DNA of 64,000 nt, from positions 3,936,001-4,000,000 of the forward strand of contig OY969474.1 of assembly GCA_963700145.1 (NCBI GenBank). Reading direction: 5' to 3'. A program made the position numbers and the translations under genes. The notes beneath the pieces were generated by a model. That model made no database searches. It saw only the letters and a program-made list of their open reading frames with translations, and was not told where the DNA came from. Below, piece by piece: positions 1 through 16,432 of this stretch (its first letter is position 1; each line of letters opens with the position of its first letter). This DNA is from an uncultured Acidobacteriota bacterium (GTDB lineage: Bacteria > Acidobacteriota > Thermoanaerobaculia > Multivoradales > UBA5704).

Positions 1-3000
1 CCGGCGAGGTAGTCGAGCCCGCCCTTGAGCAGCGCGTCGTCCACCGGGTGGCCGGCGCGCCGCGCCTCGACCAGGAAGTGGGTGGCGTAGACGCTCCCCC
101 AGGGGTGCGCCGTCTGCTCGCCGGGCCAGAGGGCGAAGCCGCCGTCGAAGAGCTGCATCGTCGAGACCCGCCGGATCCCCTCCTGGACGTACCCCGCCGG
201 CTGCGCCTTCTTGAAGAGATCCGGATCGAGCCGCTGGGCGAGGTCGGCGAGGTAGACCAGCGGAAACGCCGTCGAGACGGTCTGCTCGAGGCAGCCGTAG
301 GGGTAGGTCAGGAGGTCGCGGAGCTTCCCTGAGAACTGGACGATCGGCACCGGGCCGAGCGCCAGCTCGCGGGTCAGCGTCTCGGGGCGGAAGCGGCCGG
401 GGTCGGCGAGCGGCAGCTCGGCGGTGGCCTCCTGGAAGGCGCCGACGCGCTCCTCGGTCGTGATCGGCAGGTCGGGCCGCACCGGCACCGCCTCGCTGGT
501 CTTCGAGGTCTCGCCGTTGCCCGTGGCGGTGACGGTCATGCGCACGCCGCCCGAGCGGTCGCCGGTGCGCACGTCGAAGTGGACCATCCCCTCGCGGCCG
601 TTCGCCACCTCGACCTGCCGCGCCGCGTCCCCCTCGACCCGCGCCGGCCCGTCCACGCCGAGCGCCACGCGGAAGGCGCCGTCGCGGCCGGTGTCGTTGC
701 GCAGCGAGACCGGCAGGCGCAGCGTCTCGGCGAACGACAGCACGCGCGGGAAGGTGGGCAGCAGGACGAGCGGGCTCCGCACCCGCACCCGGCGCTCGGA
801 CGAGCCGAACTGCTCGCCGCGCACCGCCACCGCCATCAGGCGCACCGCCCCCTGGAACTCGGGGACGCGGAAGCTGACCGTGGCCTTGCCTTCGGCGTCG
901 GCCTCGACCGGGCCCGACCAGAAGGCGACCGGCTCGGTGCGCCGGATGCCTTCGGTGCGCAGCGACTGCGCGAGCCCCTCCATCCCCTCGCCGCCGCCGC
1001 GCGCCGCCGCCCCCTCGGGCGCCACGTCGGGCAGCAGCAGGCTGAAGGTGTCGAAGGAGGCGACGGTGAGCGCGAGCTTGCGGTAGAAGTGCTCGAAGGG
1101 CTGCGGCGTCTCCTGCGCGATGAGCTGTAGCACCCCCTCGTCCACCGCCGCCACCGTGACGATCGCCTCCGGCGCGGTCTTCACCGCCACCGTCACCTTG
1201 GTCTCCGGCCGCACCTCGGCCGGCGCGGCGATCTCGACCGGCAGGCGGTTGGCGGTGCGGTCGACGCCGATCGGCACCGCGCCGAAGGCCCGCCCGGCCG
1301 AGCCGGGCTCGAGGTCGCCGACCTTGCGCACCAGGGTCGCCGTGACGTAGGCGTTGGGGCGGTAGGCGACCGTCACCGGCAGCTCGATGCGCGCCGTGTT
1401 GCCGTCGAGCATGTGGACCGAGGTGTGGAACACCCGCTCGCGCTCGACGGTCAGGAGAAGCTTGCCCGGGAACGGCGCGCGCACCTGGACGGTGGCGGTG
1501 TCGCCGGGCGCGTACTCGGTGCGGTCGAGATCGAGCTCCAACCGCGCCGGGTTCTTGAGCGCCCAGGGCGAGTACCCCCACTCGCTGACGAAGAACTCGA
1601 CCGCCGCCGCGGCCTGCGTGTCGGGGTCGGTCAGCACCACGCGGTAGCTGCCGGCCCGCCGCGGCTGGAAGCGGAAGCGGTCGCGCGCCTCGCCGCCGGC
1701 GATGGCGCGGGTGTCGACGAGCAGCGAGTCGCGCGTCGATTCGTAGCGGAAGGTCCCGGCCGGCGTGCGGCGCAGGACGGTGTTCCAGCGGTCGAGGAAG
1801 AGGTCGGCGCGGAGCGGCTTCGCCGGCGTCGCCTTGCCGTCGAGGCCCACCGCCGCGTACTCGAAGACCGCCGCCTGGCCGGGGCGCACGAACCCCTCGC
1901 CCTCGGTCTCGCCCTCGCCCGCTACCCGCTTCAGGCCGACGTAGTAGGGGTACGGATGGATGCGCAGCCGCTGCAGCGCCGCCACGCCGCGGCCGCCGCG
2001 CTCCTGGACGCGCGCCGTGATCACGGCCTCCAGCGACGACGGCACCGGCGCGCCGGCCGGCATCGTCGCCTTGAAGGTGGCGCGCCCCTCGTCGTCGAGC
2101 GTCCCCTGCTGCGACAGCACCTCGCGCTCGTCGAGCTCGCGCTCGGGGTTGCGGAAGGTGAAGCCGGGGAAGCCCTCGGGCGCGAAGTCGGAGTCCACCA
2201 GGCGCACCCGGCTCTCGACCGGCAGGTCCGCCGCCGGCGGCCCGAAGAGGTAGGTGCCGGCGACGCGATAGGCCAGCTCCTGCCCCGGGCCGACCCGCTC
2301 GGCCGGCGGCACGATCTCGACCTCGATGCGGTCGGGGACGAACTCCTCGACCTGGAAGCGGTACGTGCCGATCACCTTCTCGGCCACCTCCAGCTCCAGC
2401 GTGTGGTGGCCGGTCAGGGCGTAGGGCGGGAGGTCGAGAGTGAAGGGCGCGAGGCCGCGCGGCGTCGTCTCCAGCCGCTGCGTGCCGCGCTCCCGCCCCA
2501 GCGGGTCGCGGTGGCGGAGGAGGGCCGGCATCGGCTCGGGGGCGCGCAGGTCGCCGTCGCGCACGATCGCGAGGCCCTCGACCTTCTCGCCCGGCCGGTA
2601 GATGTCGCGCTCGCCGTAGAGGTAGGCGGTGTAGCCGCGGCCGGGGGCGGCCTCGCCGCCGACGTCGAGGCCGGCGCTGTCCACCTGCATGGCGTCGAGG
2701 AGCAGGAAGCTGAAGTCGCCGCCGCGCTCGATCGTCACCATGTAGGGCCGGTGGGCGCGCATCGCCTCGGCGTCGGTGAAGCGCCAGAGGCCGGCGCCGT
2801 CGGTGCGCCCCTCGCCGATCACCTGGTTCTGGTCGGAGATGAGGGTGACGCGCGCGCCCTCGACGGCGCCGAGGTCGCGGAAGGACGACACCCAGAGCAG
2901 GAGCTCCCCCTCGCCGCGCTTGGCGACGGCGCCGAGATCCGTGACCAGGAGCCAGCGCTGCGCCCCCTCCCAGTGCCCGGCGCGCGAGACGACCACGCGG

Positions 3001-4415
3001 TAGAGCCCGTTCTTGCCGCGCGGCACGCGGCGGTCGAGCGAGAGCGGCGTGCGCACCGTCTGGTTGGGGCGCGAGCGCACCGGCAGCGTCGCGTCGGTCA
3101 CCCGGTCGCCGAGCGCGTGCGCCACGCCGCCGCCGGCGTAGGTCGTCTCCCCCTCGAAGAAGCCGCCGTACTGGAAGAGGAAGAAGAGGTTGTTGAGATA
3201 GACGCGGTCGATCGTGAGCTGCACCTCGCCGACGTTGACCGTCTCGACCGCCACCGTCTTGGTGCCCGAGGCCGAGAGGAACATCCCCTGGCTCTGGAAG
3301 CCGACCGAGGGCTCGAGGTCGGGGAGGCGCACCTGCGCCTTGTACTCCTCGGGGAGAACGGCGTCGTCGGTGGCGGGAAGGCCCTTGGCGATCGTCAGCG
3401 CGTAGCCCTCGCCGGGGCGGAACTCGCCGGTCAGCGACAGGACGTTGCGCTCGGCCGACGGCCGGTAGCGCACCGCCGGCTCGACGCGCACGTACTTCTC
3501 CGCCACCGCCGCCGAGATCGGCGAGGAGAACCGCACGCGCAGCGTCGACTCGCGCGCCCCCGGCTCGGTCTCCACCCCCCAGACCGCCAGCCGCGTCGAG
3601 GAGCCCACCGGGATCTCGTGCACGAACTCCTCGGGCAGTGGCACGTTGCCCTCGAACGGCGTGAGCGAGCCGTCGATCACCAGCCGCACCTTCCGCTCCT
3701 CGCGCCGCTTCTGCACCGCCGCCGTCTGGAAGCCGATCTGCGGGCTCGGCCAGTCGGTCTCGAGCGTGACCTCGACCGGGTTGTCGTCGCCCAAGTCGGG
3801 ATCGACCAGCCGGATCTTCGAGACCAGGAGCTCGGGGTGCACGGGGTAGTTGAAGCGGATCGTGCCCCGGTAGACGACCCGCGCCTTGCCTTCGAGCGCC
3901 GGCTCCTCCTGCACGTCCACCCCCTCGACCAGGAACTGGTCGGTGCGGACGACGAGCTCGGTGTCGCCGACGAATTCCTGGCCGGGCTTGAGGAGCCGCT
4001 CCGGGATGAGCGTCAGCGTGTACTGGCTGGCGATCGGGAACTGCCCGGAAGGCTGGAAGCGGAGAGCGTTGGTGTCCTGCCACTTCCAGCTCCCGGCGAG
4101 CGCGGGCGAGAGCGTCGCCGGCTCCTCCTTGAGCACCTCGCCCACCGCCCCTTCGCCGAGCGGCCGGTCGAAGAGCACGTCCACGTACGCTCGCCCCTCC
4201 CGGTCGATCACCACGTCGAAGACCTTGACGGCCTCCCCTTCCGGCCCGAGCTTCAGCGCCGCCCCGAGCGGCTCGCGGAAGGCATACGCGGCGAGCGTCG
4301 CCACCAGCACCGAGAGCACGCCGATCGCGACGTCCTTCCAATGCCAGCGGCGCAAGAAGAGAGAGCGGAACCGAGCGGGAAACTTGTCCCGCAGGGTGGC
4401 GAACGGGTTGGGCAT
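1..4415 (-). CDS. Bacterial alpha-2-macroglobulin family protein (YfhM-like); 3' end outside window
   Basis: Manual translation from ATG 4415 (AGGAGA RBS): MPNPFATLRDKFPARF..., N-terminal TM segment, MG2 motif YLYGERDIYRPGE, FQVEEFVPDRIEV, thioester motif YPYGCLEQ near 280-310. Absent from the ORF track because it runs off the window. Confidence 0.92.
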   Translation of the reverse strand, partial: MPNPFATLRDKFPARFRSLFLRRWHWKDVAIGVLSVLVATLAAYAFREPLGAALKLGPEGEAVKVFDVVIDREGRAYVDVLFDRPLGEGAVGEVLKEEPATLSPALAGSWKWQDTNALRFQPSGQFPIASQYTLTLIPERLLKPGQEFVGDTELVVRTDQFLVEGVDVQEEPALEGKARVVYRGTIRFNYPVHPELLVSKIRLVDPDLGDDNPVEVTLETDWPSPQIGFQTAAVQKRREERKVRLVIDGSLTPFEGNVPLPEEFVHEIPVGSSTRLAVWGVETEPGARESTLRVRFSSPISAAVAEKYVRVEPAVRYRPSAERNVLSLTGEFRPGEGYALTIAKGLPATDDAVLPEEYKAQVRLPDLEPSVGFQSQGMFLSASGTKTVAVETVNVGEVQLTIDRVYLNNLFFLFQYGGFFEGETTYAGGGVAHALGDRVTDATLPVRSRPNQTVRTPLSLDRRVPRGKNGLYRVVVSRAGHWEGAQRWLLVTDLGAVAKRGEGELLLWVSSFRDLGAVEGARVTLISDQNQVIGEGRTDGAGLWRFTDAEAMRAHRPYMVTIERGGDFSFLLLDAMQVDSAGLDVGGEAAPGRGYTAYLYGERDIYRPGEKVEGLAIVRDGDLRAPEPMPALLRHRDPLGRERGTQRLETTPRGLAPFTLDLPPYALTGHHTLELEVAEKVIGTYRFQVEEFVPDRIEVEIVPPAERVGPGQELAYRVAGTYLFGPPAADLPVESRVRLVDSDFAPEGFPGFTFRNPERELDEREVLSQQGTLDDEGRATFKATMPAGAPVPSSLEAVITARVQERGGRGVAALQRLRIHPYPYYVGLKRVAGEGETEGEGFVRPGQAAVFEYAAVGLDGKATPAKPLRADLFLDRWNTVLRRTPAGTFRYESTRDSLLVDTRAIAGGEARDRFRFQPRRAGSYRVVLTDPDTQAAAAVEFFVSEWGYSPWALKNPARLELDLDRTEYAPGDTATVQVRAPFPGKLLLTVERERVFHTSVHMLDGNTARIELPVTVAYRPNAYVTATLVRKVGDLEPGSAGRAFGAVPIGVDRTANRLPVEIAAPAEVRPETKVTVAVKTAPEAIVTVAAVDEGVLQLIAQETPQPFEHFYRKLALTVASFDTFSLLLPDVAPEGAAARGGGEGMEGLAQSLRTEGIRRTEPVAFWSGPVEADAEGKATVSFRVPEFQGAVRLMAVAVRGEQFGSSERRVRVRSPLVLLPTFPRVLSFAETLRLPVSLRNDTGRDGAFRVALGVDGPARVEGDAARQVEVANGREGMVHFDVRTGDRSGGVRMTVTATGNGETSKTSEAVPVRPDLPITTEERVGAFQEATAELPLADPGRFRPETLTRELALGPVPIVQFSGKLRDLLTYPYGCLEQTVSTAFPLVYLADLAQRLDPDLFKKAQPAGYVQEGIRRVSTMQLFDGGFALWPGEQTAHPWGSVYATHFLVEARRAGHPVDDALLKGGLDYLA

Positions 4416-4959: not shown

Positions 4960-5212
4960 GACCGCCTCCCCCTCCGGCCCCGGCTTGAGCCACCCCGGGA
5001 GAGCGGCGGCCAGCGGCTTGCGAAAGGCGTAGGCCGCGAGGGAGACGGTCAACAGCCCGAGCCCCGCGATCGTCAGGTCCTTCCAGTGCCAGCGGCGGGA
5101 GAAGACGGAGCGCAGCCGGGCGGGGAAGCTTGTCCCGCAGGGTGGCGAACGGGTTGGGCATAAAGGCGGATCTCCTGGCGTGGCACCGCGAAAGCGCGCT
5201 TACGCTACATCA
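4960..5212 (-). pseudogene. Truncated, frameshifted second copy of the alpha-2-macroglobulin 5' end plus upstream region
   Basis: MPNPFATLRDK, then a +1 frameshift, then PARLRSVFSRRWHWKDLTIAGLGLLTVSLAAYAFRKPL...GPEGEAVR; matches 4227-4462, including the shared TACGCTACATCA. Confidence 0.85.
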
Positions 5213-5214
5213 GG

Positions 5215-5301
5215 CGCGTGACCGACACGACGACCGGCGCCGTCGAGACCTACAGGAACCCGGCGGGCACCTATTGCGGAGGGCTGGACGAGGCGTTTTA
5301 G
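5215..5301 (+). pseudogene. 3'-end remnant of a lost gene (RVTDTTTGAVETYRNPAGTYCGGLDEAF-stop)
   Basis: Codon-biased fragment with a stop but no convincing start or RBS; from memory it resembles a recurrent C-terminal motif of secreted acidobacterial proteins (not verified). Confidence 0.5.
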
Positions 5302-5331
5302 ACGCCGTCGGCCCTTACGGCAAGATGCAGG

Positions 5332-5982
5332 TCACACGATGATGTTCGTCTCGGTGGAATCTATCGCAGCTCGGAAGACCTGCAGAGTGAGCCGTGCCGG
5401 CCCCAGCACGATCTCATCTAAATCGGCGAGCGGTGCTGCCTCAAGAAGGCACCGGCCGTTGAGCAGCGTCCCGTTCTTGCTGCCGAGATCCTCCAGAATC
5501 GCGCTTTGTGGACTCACGAGGATACGCGCGTGGCGGCGCGATACCAAGGGATGGGAGATCCAGACGACCGCCTCTCTAGTCCGACCTAGGAGGTTTTCCC
5601 CGTTCTCCAGCGCGACCACGCGCTCGTTCCAGACCAGACGATAGATGTGATCTGCCGCCGCCGGCGGCTGATCAACCCGCCATGCAGTGCCGCACCAGGC
5701 GTAGCCGAAGCTGTGCACGGTCCGGATGAGATGAGGTTGGCGTGAATCGTCACCGAGCACGCGACGAAGCTCCGCCACCAAATTCGACAGACTGGCCTCT
5801 GTGACGAACGCTCCCGGCCAGAGACACCCCAGCAAGTGGTCCTTCGATAGAGCCTGAGGCCGCTTCTCGAGCAAGACCTCGAGAAGACGAAAAGCCTTCG
5901 GGGAAAGATGTACGACTTCCCCGCTGCGTAGCAGCTCCCGGGTGTCGGTATCCAGAACGCAGTTGCTGAAGGCTATGCGCAT
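5332..5982 (-). CDS. Transcriptional regulator, OmpR/PhoB-type winged helix plus FHA domain
   Basis: LSPKAFRLL...SLSNLVAELRRVLGD...IRTVHSFGY (Trans_reg_C); LLGR...VSRRHARI...EDLGSKNGT (FHA). Confidence 0.9.
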   Translation of the reverse strand: MRIAFSNCVLDTDTRELLRSGEVVHLSPKAFRLLEVLLEKRPQALSKDHLLGCLWPGAFVTEASLSNLVAELRRVLGDDSRQPHLIRTVHSFGYAWCGTAWRVDQPPAAADHIYRLVWNERVVALENGENLLGRTREAVVWISHPLVSRRHARILVSPQSAILEDLGSKNGTLLNGRCLLEAAPLADLDEIVLGPARLTLQVFRAAIDSTETNIIV

Positions 5983-5987
5983 TGGGA

Positions 5988-6051
5988 AATCCTTGGAGAA
6001 TCCTTGGCCTTTCTTTAAGCCTTTGCCTCTCTACGTGGCCGATTATACACC
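5988..6051 (+). promoter_or_regulatory. Direct repeats AATCCTTGG (5988, 5999; 11-bp period) upstream of a putative -35 TTGCCT / -10 TATACA-TACACC
   Basis: Repeats are seen directly; the 11-bp spacing is typical of wHTH (OmpR/SARP) operators. Confidence 0.55.
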
Positions 6052-6125
6052 TGAGTGGCCGACGCATTGATGCCTCGACCGGCCGGCCACGAGGACTAGC
6101 GACCCTCGGCTGCAGAGGAGGATTT

Positions 6126-6196
6126 ATGCGAAGAACGTCCAGACCAACCTCAAGGCGGGAGCTAGGTACGTGGTCATCGACTGGGGGATGGGTTGA
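6126..6196 (+). pseudogene. Peptide copy 1, frameshifted right after ATG (would read MAKNVQTNLKAGARYVVIDWGMG)
   Basis: GAGGAGG RBS + ATG 6126; the conserved VQTNLKAGAR frame is out of phase with the ATG, and adding one G (ATG-G-CG) restores it. Confidence 0.6.
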
Positions 6197-6236
6197 TGAA
6201 GGGCGACCTAATCCCAGCGGAGGGAGGTGAAAAGCG

Positions 6237-6302
6237 ATGAAAGTTCAGACCAACCTCAAGGCAGGCGCTAGGCACCAGATCATCGACTGGGGGATGGGTT
6301 GA
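6237..6302 (+). CDS. Small peptide copy 2, MKVQTNLKAGARHQIIDWGMG
   Basis: GGAGGTGA RBS, ATG...TGA, homologous to the neighbouring copies. Confidence 0.8.
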   Translation: MKVQTNLKAGARHQIIDWGMG

Positions 6303-6341
6303 TGAAGGGCCACATAGTTCAGTGAAGGGAGGTGAGAAGCG

Positions 6342-6401
6342 ATGAAAGTTCAGACCAACCTCAAGGCGGGCGCTAGGCACCAGATCATCGACGTCGGGTA
6401 G
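6342..6401 (+). CDS. Small peptide copy 3, MKVQTNLKAGARHQIIDVG
   Basis: GGAGGTGA RBS, ATG...TAG. Confidence 0.8.
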   Translation: MKVQTNLKAGARHQIIDVG

Positions 6402-6435
6402 TCCCAGGCTGTCCACGAAGGGAGGTGAGAAGCGA

Positions 6436-6495
6436 ATGAAAGTTAAGACAAACCTCAAAGCGGGAGCTAGGCACCAGATCATCGACTTCGGGTAA
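6436..6495 (+). CDS. Small peptide copy 4, MKVKTNLKAGARHQIIDFG
   Basis: GGAGGTGA RBS, ATG...TAA; mostly synonymous differences from the other copies (ACA/ACC, AAA/AAG, GGA/GGC). Confidence 0.8.
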   Translation: MKVKTNLKAGARHQIIDFG

Positions 6496-6668
6496 CCAGG
6501 ATCATTTGAAACAGCTCGGGTCATGTTCAGACCTCGCTCCATAAGAGTCCAGGGTGACCGCGTCCCATCCACCAAAGAAGGAGAGCCCGAGTGACTCGTA
6601 AGACACCACGAAGACCGGGAGCACACGGCTTGCCGGCCAGCATGACCACATACGAGAAAGGACACCTC

Positions 6669-7760
6669 ATGAAGACCGCAGCTTCGATGGCCCTGATCGG
6701 ATCACTTCTCTTCGCCGGCGGTGCCGACGCCGAACTCTGTCAGTTCGGCTATGCCGACGCCGTAGTCGTCCGCGACGGCACTCCGACCGTCGGTTGGGTC
6801 GCCGCCCAGAACGCCGGGGTGCCGCAGGACTCCGGTCGCATTATCCCGCTCGACAGCCCGCCCGGGGGCGCCGGCATTGAGGCGCACATGCGCGACATCC
6901 GCTCGTACATCCAGGCGATGAACGCCAATGGCATTCGCCCCCTGGTGGACCTCTCGGACGTCCTCTTCAAGCGGGATCCGTTGGTCAACCCCAACTGCGG
7001 CGCCGACTACGAGCGCGGGTACTTGCGAAACACCACGGCTTGGGAACGCCAGGAGTTCAAACCCGGCGCCGCGGCGAAGCTCGACAGCTTCCTAGCGCTC
7101 AACGCCAGCGAGCTCGGCACGGACAGCATCCGGGGCTTCATCGTCCACGTGGAGGTCAACAACAACTGCGTGCCCGCATGGCGGGTCAACAGCGGAGCCC
7201 GGATGTTGAAGGACCGCGGCTACGGCCCGGCGCAGGGCTACGTTCTCGCCGCCGGGTACGGGCTGGACCGTACCCCCCAGGCGCCGGCGATCTCCACGGG
7301 CATGCCGACGGGCCTCTTCCCCTTCGAGCTGACCCACATCACGCCCTGGGCCTACGACATCCACTCCCTGTACGTGGACTCGGTCTACAACCTCAACATC
7401 GACGTGACCCAGCTCGGCGTCGCCGGCTTTTGGAACAAGCTCGTCGGCAAGCTCAGGCCCAATCAGCAGGTGATCTGGGGGCTGTTGGCGATATGCGGGC
7501 CCACCCAGCAGCAAATGTTCAATGGCTCGCATCTGGCGCCGGAGCACCGGATCGCCACCCAGTGCACGACGCCTCCCTTCCAGGGGACATGGCCGCTCGC
7601 ATCGGTCGCGGACCACTGGCAGTGGTTCGCCGAGCAGCAGCCCCGGGTGGAAGGCCTGATCGCGATCCAGTGGACCGGTCCGAACGGCACCAATGTCTTG
7701 CACTCGGCGGTCACTGGCGCCCACATCGATGTCGGCAACAGCGCCTTGACGTGCGAGTGA
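6669..7760 (+). CDS. Secreted hypothetical protein, possibly a TIM-barrel glycoside hydrolase-like fold
   Basis: GAAAGGA RBS; signal peptide MKTAASMALIGSLLFAGGADA; alternating beta/alpha pattern (GIRPLVDLS, IRGFIVHVE, VEGLIAIQW). Confidence 0.65.
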   Translation: MKTAASMALIGSLLFAGGADAELCQFGYADAVVVRDGTPTVGWVAAQNAGVPQDSGRIIPLDSPPGGAGIEAHMRDIRSYIQAMNANGIRPLVDLSDVLFKRDPLVNPNCGADYERGYLRNTTAWERQEFKPGAAAKLDSFLALNASELGTDSIRGFIVHVEVNNNCVPAWRVNSGARMLKDRGYGPAQGYVLAAGYGLDRTPQAPAISTGMPTGLFPFELTHITPWAYDIHSLYVDSVYNLNIDVTQLGVAGFWNKLVGKLRPNQQVIWGLLAICGPTQQQMFNGSHLAPEHRIATQCTTPPFQGTWPLASVADHWQWFAEQQPRVEGLIAIQWTGPNGTNVLHSAVTGAHIDVGNSALTCE

Positions 7761-7778
7761 GGTCGGCGGCGTGAAAAG

Positions 7779-7806
7779 GGCCGCTGCGCCTGCGGGCGCG
7801 GCGGCC
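7779..7806. terminator. GC hairpin just after the 7760 stop
   Basis: GGCCGCTGCGCC-TGCG-GGCGCGGCGGCC stem-loop preceded by AAAA. Confidence 0.55.
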
Positions 7807-8014
7807 TGTTCCGTCGTCGAGCTCATCCGACGGCATGGCCCCGGGAGCCAAGCTGGTGCTGCAGGGCACCGGCTACCAGGTGGACAAATGAGTGCTCTGC
7901 GAGCCCGTCGTCTGCCCCGGCACGCTCTTCGGTTCCCATGGCACTCCTCTCCAAGGAGGGGCTGGAGCTCGCCGCGGCCCTGGAGAAGGTGGCGTAACGC
8001 CCGCCGGAAGCCCC

Positions 8015-8300
8015 GGAATATCCCTGCGCGACCTGCAGACGCCCCGGCGGAGCCTCCTAATGTCCTCCCGGGACCTCGGAACCTGTTGCGCGCCCTCCGG
8101 AACCTCCTGCGCGACGCCGGGAATCGACTGCGCGACGCCGGGAATGGGTTGCGCGCGCTGCGGAACCTCCTCCGAGCCGCTCGGAAAGGGTCCCCGGCGC
8201 TCCGCAACCTGTTCCCCGGCCCGCGCAACCCATTCCCACGCTCCGGGGGAGGGTTCCGGAGCCGCCGCAGGACGTTCCACGCCTCCCGCAGGCCATTGGC
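8015..8300. repeat. 21-bp-period degenerate palindromic array A
   Basis: Units at 8078, 8099, 8120, 8141, 8162, 8183, 8204, 8225, 8246, 8267 with G[G/C]AA-N4-TT[G/C]C-like cores. Confidence 0.8.
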
Positions 8301-8578
8301 CGCCGCGCGCCGGCCGATCGCCGCCGCTCGGCGGGCGTCGCGGAGCGTCGCACCCTCAATCCCTAGGACGAGACCCAACCGCCGCGGAGACCGGCTGCCC
8401 GGGGGAGTCAGGTCCAAGGTGACGGGCGACGACGACTTCTGACGCCCAGAGCATGATGTCCAGATTCTGGACGGCGGTTGGTGGTGGCCGGCACCTTCTT
8501 TGCAGTTTCGCACCAACCGAGATTGGGGCGGCAGCCATCGCGGGGGTTTACCGCGCCGAATTCGCAGGAGGAATTCAC

Positions 8579-12806: not shown

Positions 12807-14171
12807 GGATGTGTCCCGATTCTTGTGGAGATTCGGCGTAACCCCCTGACTGTCGGGTTGACGTTAGCTCCTCACGCGGCCTGCGTCCAAATCGTGGCGA
12901 GGAAACGTTGCAGGTCTTGGTGGCCATTGACGCTGCGTAGGCGGATCTGGCCGCAGGCCACCAGTGCCCAGAGCAGGGTCAAGGCCGCCTCTTCGGTGGC
13001 GAAGCTGGCCTGGGTCTTGGTGCGGCGTCGAAACTCGCGATGGAGGTTTTCCAGCGCGTTGGTCGAGCGTAGGGTCCTCCACAGCGAGCGGGGAAACTCG
13101 TAGAAGGTCAACAGCTCCTCTCCGGCCTCCTCGAGCGAGCGGGCGACAGCCGGACACAGGCGAGACCACTTGGCGAGGAAGGCCGCGTAGGCCTGATGGG
13201 CCGCCCCACCGTCGCGGGCCTCGACGATCGGGCGCCAGTCGCGCCGGAGCTCGCCGCGAGCATGGCGCGGGCAGTGCTCCAGCAGGTTTCGGAGCTTGTG
13301 CTGGGTGCAACGCTGCACGCGCACCCCCGGCCACGCCGCCAGCGCCTTGCGCAAGCCAGCGTGGCCGTCGACGATGAGCAACTCGGGCGCCGCCAAGCCC
13401 CGCCGCTGCAGATCCTCGAGCAGCTCGCCCCACAGCCGCGCCGCCTCGCTCGTGGCCAACCGTAACGCCACCAGGACCTTGCCGCCATCGGGGCGCACGC
13501 CCAGAGCGGCCAGCACCGGCACCGCCACCACCCGCCGGGCCAGCCGCACCTTGACGTGGAACCCGTCGAGAAACAGCAGCGCGTAACGCTCGCCCGCACA
13601 ATCGCGCTCCCGCCAGGCCGCAAACCGCTCTTTGAGCCGCCCCACCACGCGCGAGGCCGCGCTCTTGGACAGGTGCTCTTCTCCCAGCAGCGGCGCCAGC
13701 GCCTTGCCGATCCGTCGGCTATTGGCCCCCGCCAGATAGCACGACAGGATCGCCGCGTCGATCTCCCGCACCCGCCGCGCGTAGCGCGGCACCAACGCGC
13801 TGGCGAACTCTTCCGTCGTGCCCTCCACTGTGGCCACCCGACCGCGCGGCACCCGCAGCGGCCGGGTCCCCGCCACCGTCGTCACCCGCCGTAGCGTGGC
13901 TCCGTTGCGGTAGCCGCGGCGCACCGCCGTCCGCTCGTAGGGCTGCGCACCCAGCGCCTCCTGAAGCTCCTGCTCTAGCACCAGCTCCACGGCCTCCAGA
14001 AGCCTCTGCTCGAGCAGCCGCCGGATGTCCTGGCGCAGCGGCACCACCTCCTGCTCTGACGTGCTAGCCTCCCACATGGCGTAACCCTCCTCCGCCGCCC
14101 ACGCGACGGGATGTGCTTGACAGCTAGGAGGTTACGCCACTTTCTTTTTCCACAAGAATCGGGACGGATCC
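12807..14171 (-). mobile_element. IS256-family insertion sequence (1365 bp)
   Basis: Terminal IRs GGATGTGTCCCGATTCTTGTGGA / GGATCCGTCCCGATTCTTGTGGA; 8-bp target duplication TCCGACCG at 12799-12806 and 14172-14179. Confidence 0.93.
12872..14077 (-). CDS. IS256-family (Mutator-type) DDE transposase
   Basis: GYRNG, LRVPRGR, LFLDGF, IVDGHAGL, VQRCTQHKLRN, RSTNALENLHREFRRRTK. Confidence 0.95.
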   Translation of the reverse strand: MWEASTSEQEVVPLRQDIRRLLEQRLLEAVELVLEQELQEALGAQPYERTAVRRGYRNGATLRRVTTVAGTRPLRVPRGRVATVEGTTEEFASALVPRYARRVREIDAAILSCYLAGANSRRIGKALAPLLGEEHLSKSAASRVVGRLKERFAAWRERDCAGERYALLFLDGFHVKVRLARRVVAVPVLAALGVRPDGGKVLVALRLATSEAARLWGELLEDLQRRGLAAPELLIVDGHAGLRKALAAWPGVRVQRCTQHKLRNLLEHCPRHARGELRRDWRPIVEARDGGAAHQAYAAFLAKWSRLCPAVARSLEEAGEELLTFYEFPRSLWRTLRSTNALENLHREFRRRTKTQASFATEEAALTLLWALVACGQIRLRSVNGHQDLQRFLATIWTQAA

Positions 14172-14271: not shown

Positions 14272-14712
14272 CTAGGTCGCCGAGGAGGCGGTGAATGGGT
14301 TCTCGACAGTGATCCCTTCGTAGCTGCGCCCGTCGGTCAGATCCTCCGAGATCAAGCGGGTGCAGCCGGCCCGCCGCGCGGCTTCCAGGATCGTCGCGTC
14401 CCACGCGGAGATCTGGGCCCGGTGAGAGAGGCCGACGGCGTCCAGCACGAGGTCCGGCGTGACCTCGACGACGTGCCACACCGTGAGCACCCGCAGGTAC
14501 TCCAAGGCACGCGCATGCTCCAGCCGGGCCGCGACTTTGCGCGTTACGGTGACGTAGAGCTCGAGGAGGACCTGCGAGCTGATCGCATAGCAGCCTTCCG
14601 CGAACCCGCGCTCCAGAATCTCCCGGGCGATCTGGTGCTTCCGCGGGTCATCGCCTGTGACCGCATAGACGAGGACGTTGGTATCGAGGAAAGCGGTCGG
14701 CTCACCGCTCAT
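14272..14712 (-). CDS. PIN-domain (VapC-like) toxin
   Basis: FLDTNVLVYA, SQVLLELY, WDATI, LISEDL. Confidence 0.9.
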   Translation of the reverse strand: MSGEPTAFLDTNVLVYAVTGDDPRKHQIAREILERGFAEGCYAISSQVLLELYVTVTRKVAARLEHARALEYLRVLTVWHVVEVTPDLVLDAVGLSHRAQISAWDATILEAARRAGCTRLISEDLTDGRSYEGITVENPFTASSAT

Positions 14713-14941
14713 GGAGCTCGTCGCGCGAGGGCAGAGGTCGTCCGCCGAGCCTCACCGGGGCTTCGTCGATGAGGGGGCGGATCGACTCCCACGCGGCGAG
14801 GCGGCGCTGCTCGTCGTCGGTCAGGCGCTCGAGGAGCTGCCGAACCAGCTCATTGACCGTCGTGTGTCTCCTCGCGGCGACGCTCCGCGCCTGCTGCAGC
14901 AGCTCTTCTTCGACGACGAGAGTGAGGTTGCGGCGAGCCAT
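14702..14941 (-). CDS. Ribbon-helix-helix antitoxin (VapB-like)
   Basis: RNLTLVVEEELLQQAR...TTVNELVRQLL...SRDELHER; overlaps the toxin start. Confidence 0.85.
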   Translation of the reverse strand: MARRNLTLVVEEELLQQARSVAARRHTTVNELVRQLLERLTDDEQRRLAAWESIRPLIDEAPVRLGGRPLPSRDELHER

Positions 14942-15040: not shown

Positions 15041-16432
15041 TTAGATCAGCGACCGCCGCCGCACGCCCCGCGACGGGAGGCGCTTGCGGCCCATGGAGCC
15101 GATGGAGCGCTGGGGGGCGGCGGGGTCGGCGGTGGGGCCGGAGTGCTCGCCGCGCGGGCGGGGCTGGTGGTGCGGCTGGTGGGCCGCGGGCTGGGGCCGG
15201 AGCTTGCGCTCCGCCTTCTCGCGGGCCCGTGCCCGCTCGCCGGCGCGCTGGGCGCGGATGGCGGCGATGCGCTGCTCGACCGGGATCTCCAGCCGCTCGG
15301 CGGGCCGCTTCTCGTAGTCGAAGCCTTGCAGCGTCAGCCGCGGCAGCTTCGATCCGACCGCTCGCTCGATGGCGTGCAGGTCGCGCAGCTCGTGGTCGGC
15401 GACCAGGGTGATGGCGTCGCCGGTGGCGTCGGCGCGGGCCGTCCGCCCGACGCGGTGGATGTAGTCGTCGGGCACCGCCGGCACGTCGAAGTTGACGACG
15501 TGGGAGAGCTCGAAGACGTCGATGCCGCGGGCGGCGATGTCGGTCGCCACCAGCACCTGCGTCCGCCCCGCCTTGAAGCGGGCGAGCGCCTGCGTGCGCT
15601 GCGCCTGGCTGCGGTTGCCGTGGATGCGGTCGCAGGAGACGCCCTGGCGCTCGAGGAAGTCGGCCAGGCGGTTGGCGCGGTGCTTGGTGCGGGTGAAGAC
15701 CAGGGCGCTGTCGATGCTGCCGCCGCGCAGCAGCTCGAGCAGCAGGTGCGACTTGAGATCCTCGCGCACCGGGTAGGTGGCCTGCGCGACGCCGGTCGCC
15801 GGCGCCGACTTGCGCTCGACGTTGATCCTCACCGGGTCGACGAGGATGTCGCGCGACAGCGCCGCGATGGGCGCCGGCATGGTGGCCGAGAAGAGCAGGT
15901 TCTGGCGCCGCTTCGGCACCCGCGCGAGGATGCGGCGGATGTCGGGCAGAAAGCCCATGTCGAGCATCCGGTCGGCCTCGTCGATGACCAGCACTTCGAC
16001 GGCGTCGAGCTTGGCGTAGGGGTACTGCAGGTGGTCGAGGAGCCGCCCGGGGGTGGCGACGAGCACGTCGACGCCGGCGCGGAAGGCCTTCTCCTGCGGC
16101 CCCATGGCGACGCCGCCGAAGATGGAGGCGCTCTTGATCGCCGTGTGCTTGGCCATCGCCCGGCAGTGCTCCTCGATCTGCGCCGCCAGCTCCCGGGTGG
16201 GGGAGACGACGAGGACGCGGGTCGTGCCGCGCGGCTTCTCGAGCAGGTTGTGGAGGATGGGGAGAATGAAGGCCGCGGTCTTGCCGCTGCCGGTCATCGC
16301 GCACCCGAGCACGTCGCGGCCGGCCTTGGCCGGCGGGATGGCGTCGCTCTGGATGGGGGTCGGGCGGGTGAAGCCCAGGTCCTGGACCCCGCGCATGAGG
16401 TCGGGGTGCAGGTCGAACGTCTTGAAATCCAT
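15041..16432 (-). CDS. DEAD-box RNA helicase (RhlE-like)
   Basis: Q motif, TGSGKT, PTRELA, TPGRL, DEAD, SAT, ARGID, HRVGRTAR. Confidence 0.95.
   Translation of the reverse strand: MDFKTFDLHPDLMRGVQDLGFTRPTPIQSDAIPPAKAGRDVLGCAMTGSGKTAAFILPILHNLLEKPRGTTRVLVVSPTRELAAQIEEHCRAMAKHTAIKSASIFGGVAMGPQEKAFRAGVDVLVATPGRLLDHLQYPYAKLDAVEVLVIDEADRMLDMGFLPDIRRILARVPKRRQNLLFSATMPAPIAALSRDILVDPVRINVERKSAPATGVAQATYPVREDLKSHLLLELLRGGSIDSALVFTRTKHRANRLADFLERQGVSCDRIHGNRSQAQRTQALARFKAGRTQVLVATDIAARGIDVFELSHVVNFDVPAVPDDYIHRVGRTARADATGDAITLVADHELRDLHAIERAVGSKLPRLTLQGFDYEKRPAERLEIPVEQRIAAIRAQRAGERARAREKAERKLRPQPAAHQPHHQPRPRGEHSGPTADPAAPQRSIGSMGRKRLPSRGVRRRSLI

Follow-up and report, generated by a model that had tools for sequence, protein, structure and literature searches.

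Peptide signalling by way of an ABC exporter that cuts the leader from its own cargo is textbook biology for Gram-positive cocci. In the cyanobacterium Anabaena, the PatS product, just 13-17 residues long, yields a signal of 5-8 residues, and a C39-type ABC exporter, HetC, is implicated. The streptococcal pairs ComC/ComAB and BlpC/BlpAB are close to the system considered here in several ways. In these systems (PMC7595303), a small ribosomal peptide carries a leader that ends in a pair of small residues, an ABC protein with a C39 peptidase domain cuts and exports it, the product is short and unmodified, and genes for sensing or regulation lie nearby. Each of these features has a counterpart, with cleavage, export and the unmodified product being predicted, in a family of very small peptides that is represented by a tandem array (positions 6109-6495) in a 64,000-nucleotide stretch of the genome of an uncultured Acidobacteriota bacterium (GenBank assembly GCA_963700145.1, contig OY969474.1, positions 3,936,001 to 4,000,000 of the forward strand). 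This whole stretch is called the window below, and positions given without another label are positions in it. The array stands opposite a gene for a regulator that joins a winged helix-turn-helix (wHTH) domain to an FHA domain. We read the array as an orphan set of substrates for a C39-peptidase ABC exporter encoded elsewhere in the genome. Its peptides would be cut after the leader, exported unmodified, placed under the control of an FHA regulator, and likely used as signals. From comparisons of sequence, this reading is given a probability of about 0.68.

The array consists of four head-to-tail units. A 73-nucleotide unit is directly repeated four times between 6109 and 6486, with spacings of 106, 105 and 94 nucleotides, and Tandem Repeats Finder gives the array scores of 411 and 298. 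Three of the units hold intact open reading frames (ORFs) of 21, 19 and 19 codons, all on the + strand. Copy 2 (6237-6302, MKVQTNLKAGARHQIIDWGMG, stop TGA) encodes the leader MKVQTNLKAG followed by the predicted core ARHQIIDWGMG. Copy 3 (6342-6401, MKVQTNLKAGARHQIIDVG, stop TAG) joins the same leader to ARHQIIDVG, and copy 4 (6436-6495, MKVKTNLKAGARHQIIDFG, stop TAA) joins MKVKTNLKAG to ARHQIIDFG. The three score 24.5, 24.8 and 25.2 bits, respectively, against the leader model described below. In each, the Shine-Dalgarno sequence GGGAGGTGA stands 7-8 nucleotides 5' of the ATG. Compared in pairs over their first 17 codons, copies 2-4 differ by one synonymous and no non-synonymous change, by four and one, and by three and one. 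A preliminary description, made from the letters of the window, had pointed to Shine-Dalgarno sequences, to three different stop codons and to synonymous changes; for copies 2-4, all of these are borne out, the changes being mostly synonymous.

The same description had counted four peptide genes. The array itself is real, and three of its ORFs are intact, but copy 1 (6131-6196, + strand, KNVQTNLKAGARYVVIDWGMG) had been misread. Where copies 2-4 carry ATG, copy 1 carries AAG, and its frame does not take in the ATG at 6126. Upstream in the frame of copy 1 there is no ATG, GTG or TTG, just a CTG at 6110 and an ATT at 6122. Further, copy 1 differs from the other copies by 5-6 amino acids over 17 codons. 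With its start codon lost and its amino acids changed to this extent, copy 1 is therefore best read as a decaying copy, probably a gene already decayed. A parallel is found in a related genome, G028 (genomes carry G numbers here, and loci L numbers). There, a third copy between two intact peptide genes (L027, ~6385-6440) is a frameshifted pseudo-copy, with a one-base insertion after the leader Lys codon.

When 60 relatives are searched with a model built from the four copies, small tandem ORFs come up that share their N-terminus with the window peptides, among them ORFs in G021, G028 and G049. The preliminary description had proposed a search of this kind in Acidobacteriota genomes. In G021, five 19-codon genes of the pattern MTVQTHLQAGAR.Q..I.G lie directly 5' of genes for an HlyD protein, a C39-peptidase ABC protein and a second ABC protein. 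The order is reversed in G028, where the HlyD, C39-ABC and second ABC genes come first and the peptide genes, one of them frameshifted, come after. In G049, a peptide gene is followed by HlyD and C39-ABC genes. 

The linkage extends beyond these relatives. For a scan for leader ORFs, 79 public loci were fetched by the exporter protein alone. These span the Acidobacteriota (Thermoanaerobaculia, Terriglobia, Bryobacterales, Pyrinomonadaceae), the Chloroflexota, the Myxococcota, the Planctomycetota and some Pseudomonadota. At 16 bits or more, a leader model built from pattern matches within those same 79 loci recovers 70 small ORFs in 33 of the 79 and none in the reversed sequences, a control that addresses chance only. 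In 19 of the 33, HlyD has a peptide gene on its own strand, 85-760 nucleotides upstream. In five (L038, L053, L061, L082, L101), two of which also count among the 19, a peptide gene stands 68-222 nucleotides after the second ABC gene. When the ORFs of 88 loci are clustered, the only widely common ones are the ABC genes (83/88) and HlyD (70/88); the next clusters reach at most 14 of the 88 and hold kinases, regulators or clade-specific genes.

What these peptides share is a leader of ten residues, M-K-[VI]-x-[TS]-x-[VLI]-x-A-G, with 5-11 variable residues after it. Ala9 and Gly10 are the sole invariant positions, being found in 32 of 32 aligned members. At position 7, 31 members have Val, Leu or Ile; the residue that follows Gly10 is freely variable. 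Thus, the layout of leader and core that had been suspected from the window alone holds for the family, with its constant Ala-Gly pair and its variable tails. In Chloroflexota the leader stands before cargoes of 50 residues as well, and there are single ORFs (L106 10053-10181, L101 15536-15688) that contain it twice, as two leader-plus-core units in series. Both observations fit a signal for cleavage and export, and the two-unit ORFs suggest one precursor that is cut into several peptides. 

Chloroflexota cargoes of ~30-50 residues are found at L079 9014-9196, L040 3314-3496, L082 6735-6917, L091 8939-9118 and L081 10490-10618. A CGC motif is present in three of these five (L079, L040, L082), pentapeptide-repeat proteins are frequent neighbours of their genes, and one of the genes (L081) adjoins genes for a LanM-type lanthipeptide synthetase and a Crp regulator.

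The short cores have semi-conserved motifs, xxWGx in Terriglobia and AR.Q.I..G in Thermoanaerobaculia. AR-type cores, the kind found in the window, are rare: when 400 other genomes from the class were searched, four encoded them (G021, G025, G117, G048). These closest relatives of the window peptides are linked to a cassette in G021 and in L105, a locus from a metagenome-assembled genome (MAG) of Thermoanaerobaculia in which three AR-type copies lie between the HlyD gene and the exporter gene. A degenerate pattern, QT.L.AGAR, matched at least 120 stretches in metagenomes. None of those listed holds a leader-type small ORF, and these were set aside as chance matches.

The family appears to be undescribed. 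NCBIfam release 20 gives no relevant match for 13 members at E values up to 1 or 10, the three weak and irrelevant matches among them lying far below the cut-offs. The match to an already described precursor family that the preliminary description had allowed for is thus found in none of these models. Eight members were looked up in a collection of 15 billion proteins, where exact look-up accepts queries of at least 20 residues; the tiny ones are absent, and three longer ones are present, all as "hypothetical protein". No description of the peptides was found in searches that covered open-access article text only.

The genome that holds the window has one exporter cassette of the right kind. 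Searches of this genome covered one 5.46-Mb contig, in which a single full C39-ABC gene is found, the only strong C39 match, at a distance of 1.68 Mb from the window. An HlyD gene precedes it and a second ABC gene follows it. The exporter is 72% identical to that of G028 and 51% identical to that of G021, and its nearest relatives place the genome in Thermoanaerobaculia. ComA peptidase structures are among the PDB matches of its peptidase domain. In an alignment with PCAT1 (4RY2), its Gln14, Cys20, His100 and Asp116 fall on identical residues, which we take to be catalytic there. The preliminary description had, as one of two options, placed maturation in trans, since it saw no maturase or exporter in the window. 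Among the Pfam-annotated genes of the window (1 to ~45 kb) there is indeed neither, and the distant cassette, with its protease residues intact, makes action in trans plausible.

Directly after the second ABC gene of this cassette, the 32-member leader model finds five peptide genes, four of them of the form MRVKTTVKAGG-x-L-x-x-D and one, MKTKTHVKAGGITASGAD, on the other strand. These five and the four units in the window make up all nine leader matches in the genome. Narrower searches of the same genome, with a TNLKAGA DNA pattern and with the four-copy model, matched the window array alone. The window array is paired with this pump because the cassette is the sole one of its type in the genome. 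With one pump and two arrays, the window array is the unlinked one; it would be the second, orphan set of substrates for that pump.

The cassette has described relatives. Its three-gene architecture is that of the NHLP/Nif11 triad (TIGR03794, HlyD-like; TIGR03796, C39-ABC; TIGR03797, second ABC). NHLP models are among the top NCBIfam matches for all three proteins from this genome and are the best match for none; TIGR03796 ranks first only for the exporters of G021, G028 and G049. The scores, in bits, lie well under the cut-offs: 46.4 against 156.2 for HlyD, 157.6 against 853.3 for C39-ABC, and 105.6 against 709.4 for the second ABC protein. By these scores, the cassette is a relative of the NHLP export family and not a member of it. 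It differs further in its exporter, which compared with PCAT1 has ~140 more residues between peptidase and membrane domain, and in having substrates of 15-21 residues rather than the long leaders of NHLP/Nif11 precursors. 

The leader also differs from those of ComC and BlpC. It has ten residues, it ends in Ala-Gly, and it lacks hydrophobic residues at -7 and -12, and the cores behind it are 5-11 residues long. The hosts are of Gram-negative type, the cassette adds an HlyD adaptor and a second ABC gene, and the sensors encoded nearby are Ser/Thr kinases and FHA regulators in place of histidine kinases. PatS, in turn, is unrelated in sequence, is encoded by a single gene and has a role in cyanobacterial development.

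The regulator gene (5332-5982, - strand) is divergent from the array and encodes 216 amino acids. Pfam confirms both domains that the preliminary description had assigned to it. An OmpR-type winged helix, Trans_reg_C, covers residues 21-95 (E 4.8e-17), and a C-terminal FHA domain covers residues 132-194 (E 5.2e-14). Sequence matches in the PDB are to the DNA-binding domains of OmpR, PcoR and KdpE and to FHA domains from Mycobacterium tuberculosis, including that of EmbR (2fez). The translation also contains GR...SRRH...NG, which we take to be the FHA motif. EmbR, which in M. tuberculosis is controlled by the kinase PknH, has an OmpR-type winged helix, a BTAD domain and an FHA domain. By analogy, the window regulator, with DNA-binding and FHA domains of the same types, would respond to Ser/Thr phosphorylation and not through a receiver domain. 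It differs from EmbR in its 216 residues, in its adjoining the peptide genes, and in its lack of a Pfam match to BTAD between its two domains. In the divergent intergenic region, two 11-nucleotide direct repeats, TTGGGAAATCC and TTGGAGAATCC, occupy 5982-6003 with 11-nucleotide spacing. They are possibly a binding site for the OmpR-type domain, a candidate only, as a repeat this short and in two copies might arise by chance.

Other members of the family have neighbours of a similar kind. Activators of the FHA-GAF-sigma54 type adjoin arrays in L061, L064, L075 and L096, and in the same four loci, promoters of the type TGGCAC-N5-TTGCA stand 26-116 nucleotides before the first ATG. Over the whole set, a match of at least 10/11 to what we take to be the sigma-54 -24/-12 consensus is found within 250 nucleotides of 8 of 48 arrays; of 2000 control windows drawn at random from these loci, 8 have one. 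Kinases recur as well. In G048, two AR-type arrays lie ~160-380 nucleotides downstream of genes for kinase-TM-TPR proteins, in which a Ser/Thr kinase domain is joined through a single predicted membrane span to a TPR domain, and this architecture is found again 5.3 kb from the G049 cassette. At the cassette of the window's own genome, a kinase-TPR gene stands 48 nucleotides upstream of the plus-strand leader peptide, after a gene for an ECF (extracytoplasmic function) sigma factor. In Terriglobia, and likewise in a Planctomyces MAG, the cassette is followed by kinases whose beta-propellers face outward, a wHTH-TPR regulator gene precedes the peptide gene in L041, and CHAT-TPR proteins flank the arrays of G021, G025 and G117. 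The recurrence of FHA activators, sigma-54 promoters and receptor Ser/Thr kinases supports the view that arrays of this family may be under phospho-threonine control. Among the neighbours that the preliminary description had thought worth tabulating, maturases are not conserved across the 88 loci and the full-length homologues of the window regulator have no such peptide within 1.5 kb; other FHA activators and kinases do recur.

Two further neighbours are recorded here. In two Bryobacterales loci (L115, L046, 9100-10000), the exporter has an FHA-GAF-sigma54 activator directly upstream, the two being separated by no more than an HlyD-like stub of ~150 residues; no leader peptide was detected in either locus. 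A multi-pass membrane protein of ~511 residues is encoded divergently from the peptide genes in L048 (6841-8376) and in six other Acidobacteriaceae loci. It has no Pfam match, and used as a query it has no match in the window's own genome.

The mechanism proposed for the window can now be stated. The three intact genes would yield precursors of 19-21 residues, whose first ten, MKVxTNLKAG, would serve as a minimal leader of the double-glycine type. The distant HlyD/C39-ABC/ABC cassette would recognise this leader, cut after Ala9-Gly10, and export the 9-11-residue cores ARHQIIDWGMG, ARHQIIDVG and ARHQIIDFG without further modification. The array would have arrived on a strain-specific module of 2.8 kb that brought its own wHTH-FHA regulator with it. 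That regulator most likely activates the array once a Ser/Thr kinase has created a phospho-threonine ligand for its FHA domain, and it may act through the direct repeats at 5982-6003. The secreted peptides are most likely extracellular signals rather than toxins. The most speculative step, of course, is the one in which the cores would be signals sensed by receptor kinases.

Several observations weigh against this proposal, beginning with the leader. Of the features of a double-glycine leader, it has Gly at -1 within a small-residue pair and a hydrophobic residue (Val/Leu/Ile) at -4 only, not at -7 or -12. In PMC6363468, the peptidase LahT150 requires Leu at -7 and at -12, is blocked when Leu-7 is changed to Lys, cleaves after GG, GA and GS, and has 13 residues as the shortest leader shown to be cleaved. 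The window system resembles LahT150 and PCAT1 (PDB 4RY2, 6MPZ) in its aligned Gln/Cys/His/Asp set, its hydrophobic -4 and its Gly at -1, but its leader has Lys, Gln or Arg at -7, has no -12 at all, is ten residues long and ends in Ala-Gly. The leader being unlike the LahT150 type, recognition must therefore differ in this exporter subfamily, the one with the ~140 extra residues. The exporter genes, moreover, are unlinked to the window array.

Other such points concern control. Neither a sigma-54 nor a sigma-70 consensus promoter was detected in the intergenic region of the array. A search of 200 further genomes from the order gave seven full-length regulator homologues (43-54% identity; L119-L125), none of them in the window's own family. 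With 1.5 kb covered around each gene, no leader ORF lies near any of these seven or, indeed, at any of the regulator-homologue loci (L119-L147), and the seven have no tandem array of small genes. As no homologue has peptides nearby, the pairing of regulator and array is therefore unique to this module. What ties the one to the other is adjacency in this genome alone, and the regulator is a candidate for control of the array. The kinase-TPR gene at the genome's own cassette (G000:C1 ~2254060-2256575; L035 4060-6575) is read in three frames, with two frame changes, the second junction falling in the region of the membrane span; it is either a pseudogene or an error of assembly. Ser/Thr kinases are, in any case, common in these genomes (26 genes in this one, together with 15 FHA domains). 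Elsewhere, within 10 kb of the arrays in G019, G032 and G025 contig 211, kinases, FHA proteins and exporters are all lacking. The neighbours of arrays are otherwise heterogeneous, many being unrelated, and in counts of neighbours related genomes are not independent observations.

The array shares its surroundings with the regulator and with one further gene. Across 5215-7985, a region of ~2.8 kb, GC content drops from 71-75% to 56-66%, and positions 5302-7758 have no match in any of four genomes of the same genus. One of these, G004, keeps the flanks at 92-94% identity and has between them 4.8 kb of other genes, for TPR and CarboxypepD_reg proteins. Since these genomes of the same genus lack them and G004 conserves the flanks on either side, regulator, array and next gene make up a single strain-specific module. 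That next gene (6591-7760, + strand, 389 residues) begins ~175 nucleotides after copy 4; its likely start is the ATG at 6669, and its N-terminus resembles a signal peptide. The secreted protein has no match in Pfam or NCBIfam. Its family is very rare, a search of 1.84 billion representatives giving just 19 relatives at E<=0.001. Its structure model is a TIM-barrel (pLDDT 87.8), for which the best folds are GH18, GH53 and GH13 barrels (TM 0.37-0.48), a likeness to glycoside hydrolases that is generic. In 16 sequences, Glu162 and Asn164 (counted from the ATG at 6669) do not vary. As a conserved partner of the peptides, the protein was rejected, having one weak match in 60 relatives. A search of 5800-6800 for terminator-like sites found none on the + strand and a single one (6597-6583) on the - strand.

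Other explanations for the array must, of course, be weighed. Perhaps the peptides are very small antimicrobials, like bacteriocins or microcins, that leave by the same pump, their variant copies broadening the range of targets. C39-ABC/HlyD cassettes are classical exporters of bacteriocins, the Cys-containing 50-residue cargoes of Chloroflexota share the leader (one adjoining the LanM-type enzyme), and arrays do hold several variant cores. The cores, however, are tiny. Typical pore-forming bacteriocins are far longer than 5-11 residues. Clustering of the ORFs in the 88 loci also gives no conserved immunity gene beside the cassettes, and what recurs beside arrays instead are sensory regulators and receptor kinases. 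This makes antimicrobials an unlikely explanation. Quite improbable, too, is the idea, favoured in part by the preliminary description, that the peptides are precursors of RiPPs (peptides made by the ribosome and modified after translation), with cores that are modified before export by enzymes encoded elsewhere. Here one can cite the semi-conserved core motifs, the LanM gene beside the family member in L081, and a radical-SAM gene ~2 kb from the peptide on G025 contig 211. Yet a maturase, an RRE (RiPP recognition element) protein or a YcaO-type gene is conserved in none of the clusters from the 88 loci, which share just HlyD and ABC genes. None is present, either, among the annotated genes of the window (1 to ~45 kb) or the 11 annotated genes at the genome's own cassette, and a ten-residue leader would have little room for a second recognition site. 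Because no maturase is conserved, peptides that are cleaved and left unmodified fit better than RiPPs.

The remaining alternatives deny the peptides a function altogether. The small ORFs might be cis-acting upstream ORFs that tune the downstream TIM-barrel gene. They are on the same strand, lie ~175 nucleotides upstream of it, and are separated from it by no terminator-like site on the + strand. But the link of the family is with exporters, not with any one gene downstream, and the TIM-barrel gene has its single weak match in 60 relatives. Each intact copy, further, has a strong Shine-Dalgarno sequence of its own, and the amino acid sequence is kept across phyla. This explanation is very improbable. 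Scarcely credible is a last one, in which the array would be a repeat that codes for nothing, be it a structured RNA or a duplication in decay. The lost start codon of copy 1 speaks for it. Against it, an Rfam scan of 5200-7000 has no match, and the units fold no better than their shuffles (z -1.15, +0.80, +1.05). The intact copies, as noted, differ mostly at synonymous sites, and homologous ORFs are found in many phyla. The array is best regarded as a set of genes for peptides that are most likely exported and left unmodified.

Some features of the flanks complete the picture of the locus. To the left of the module, a bacterial alpha-2-macroglobulin gene (3-4415, - strand) runs off the start of the window; it is 94% identical in G004. 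A dispersed repeat of ~410 nucleotides (7955-8364) abuts the right edge of the module. It has seven other copies in the genome (77-94% identity) and many in genomes of the same genus, and it matches part of itself on the opposite strand, like a MITE (miniature inverted-repeat transposable element). A 223-codon ORF that contains it (7771-8442) is probably not a gene. Farther along are a Mutator-family (IS256-like) transposase gene (12872-14077), whose flanks are multi-copy in genomes of the same genus, and, after it, a PIN/DUF6364 pair of the toxin-antitoxin kind (14272-14938). A DEAD-box helicase gene (15041-16432) flanks the low-GC region of the window. Its counterpart in G025 (L031 14142-15746) is 68% identical and lies ~4 kb from a peptide of the family, MKVKTNLKAGNNLQGLRVEDN. 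This co-occurrence may reflect a shared hot spot for insertion, or it may be a coincidence.

A wider view can be taken, tentatively and with more doubt than belief. A circuit like that of quorum sensing might run on phospho-signalling of the eukaryotic type: cores sent out by the pump would be sensed by receptor Ser/Thr kinases through TPR or beta-propeller domains that face outward, FHA activators would read the phosphorylation, and these would switch the arrays on. The FHA readers in such a circuit would be the wHTH-FHA protein in this genome and the FHA-GAF-sigma54 proteins in Terriglobia, and the module would be a second channel, acquired horizontally, that has peptides and an FHA activator of its own and borrows the resident pump.

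To our knowledge, peptide signalling through a leader-cleaving exporter is almost without precedent in the Acidobacteriota and in other abundant soil phyla. A ten-residue leader on a cargo of 5-11 residues would make one of the smallest substrates known for cleavage and export. The tiny members of the family escape gene callers, and this, in turn, means that exporters now annotated as orphans may have a cargo. The genome considered here offers a clean test case, having one pump and two unlinked sets of peptides, of which one is carried by a module that was acquired recently and has its own FHA-type regulator. Should the connection with receptor Ser/Thr kinases and FHA activators hold true, it would be a new wiring for communication between bacterial cells, and short synthetic peptides would be direct experimental handles for soil bacteria that are hard to study.

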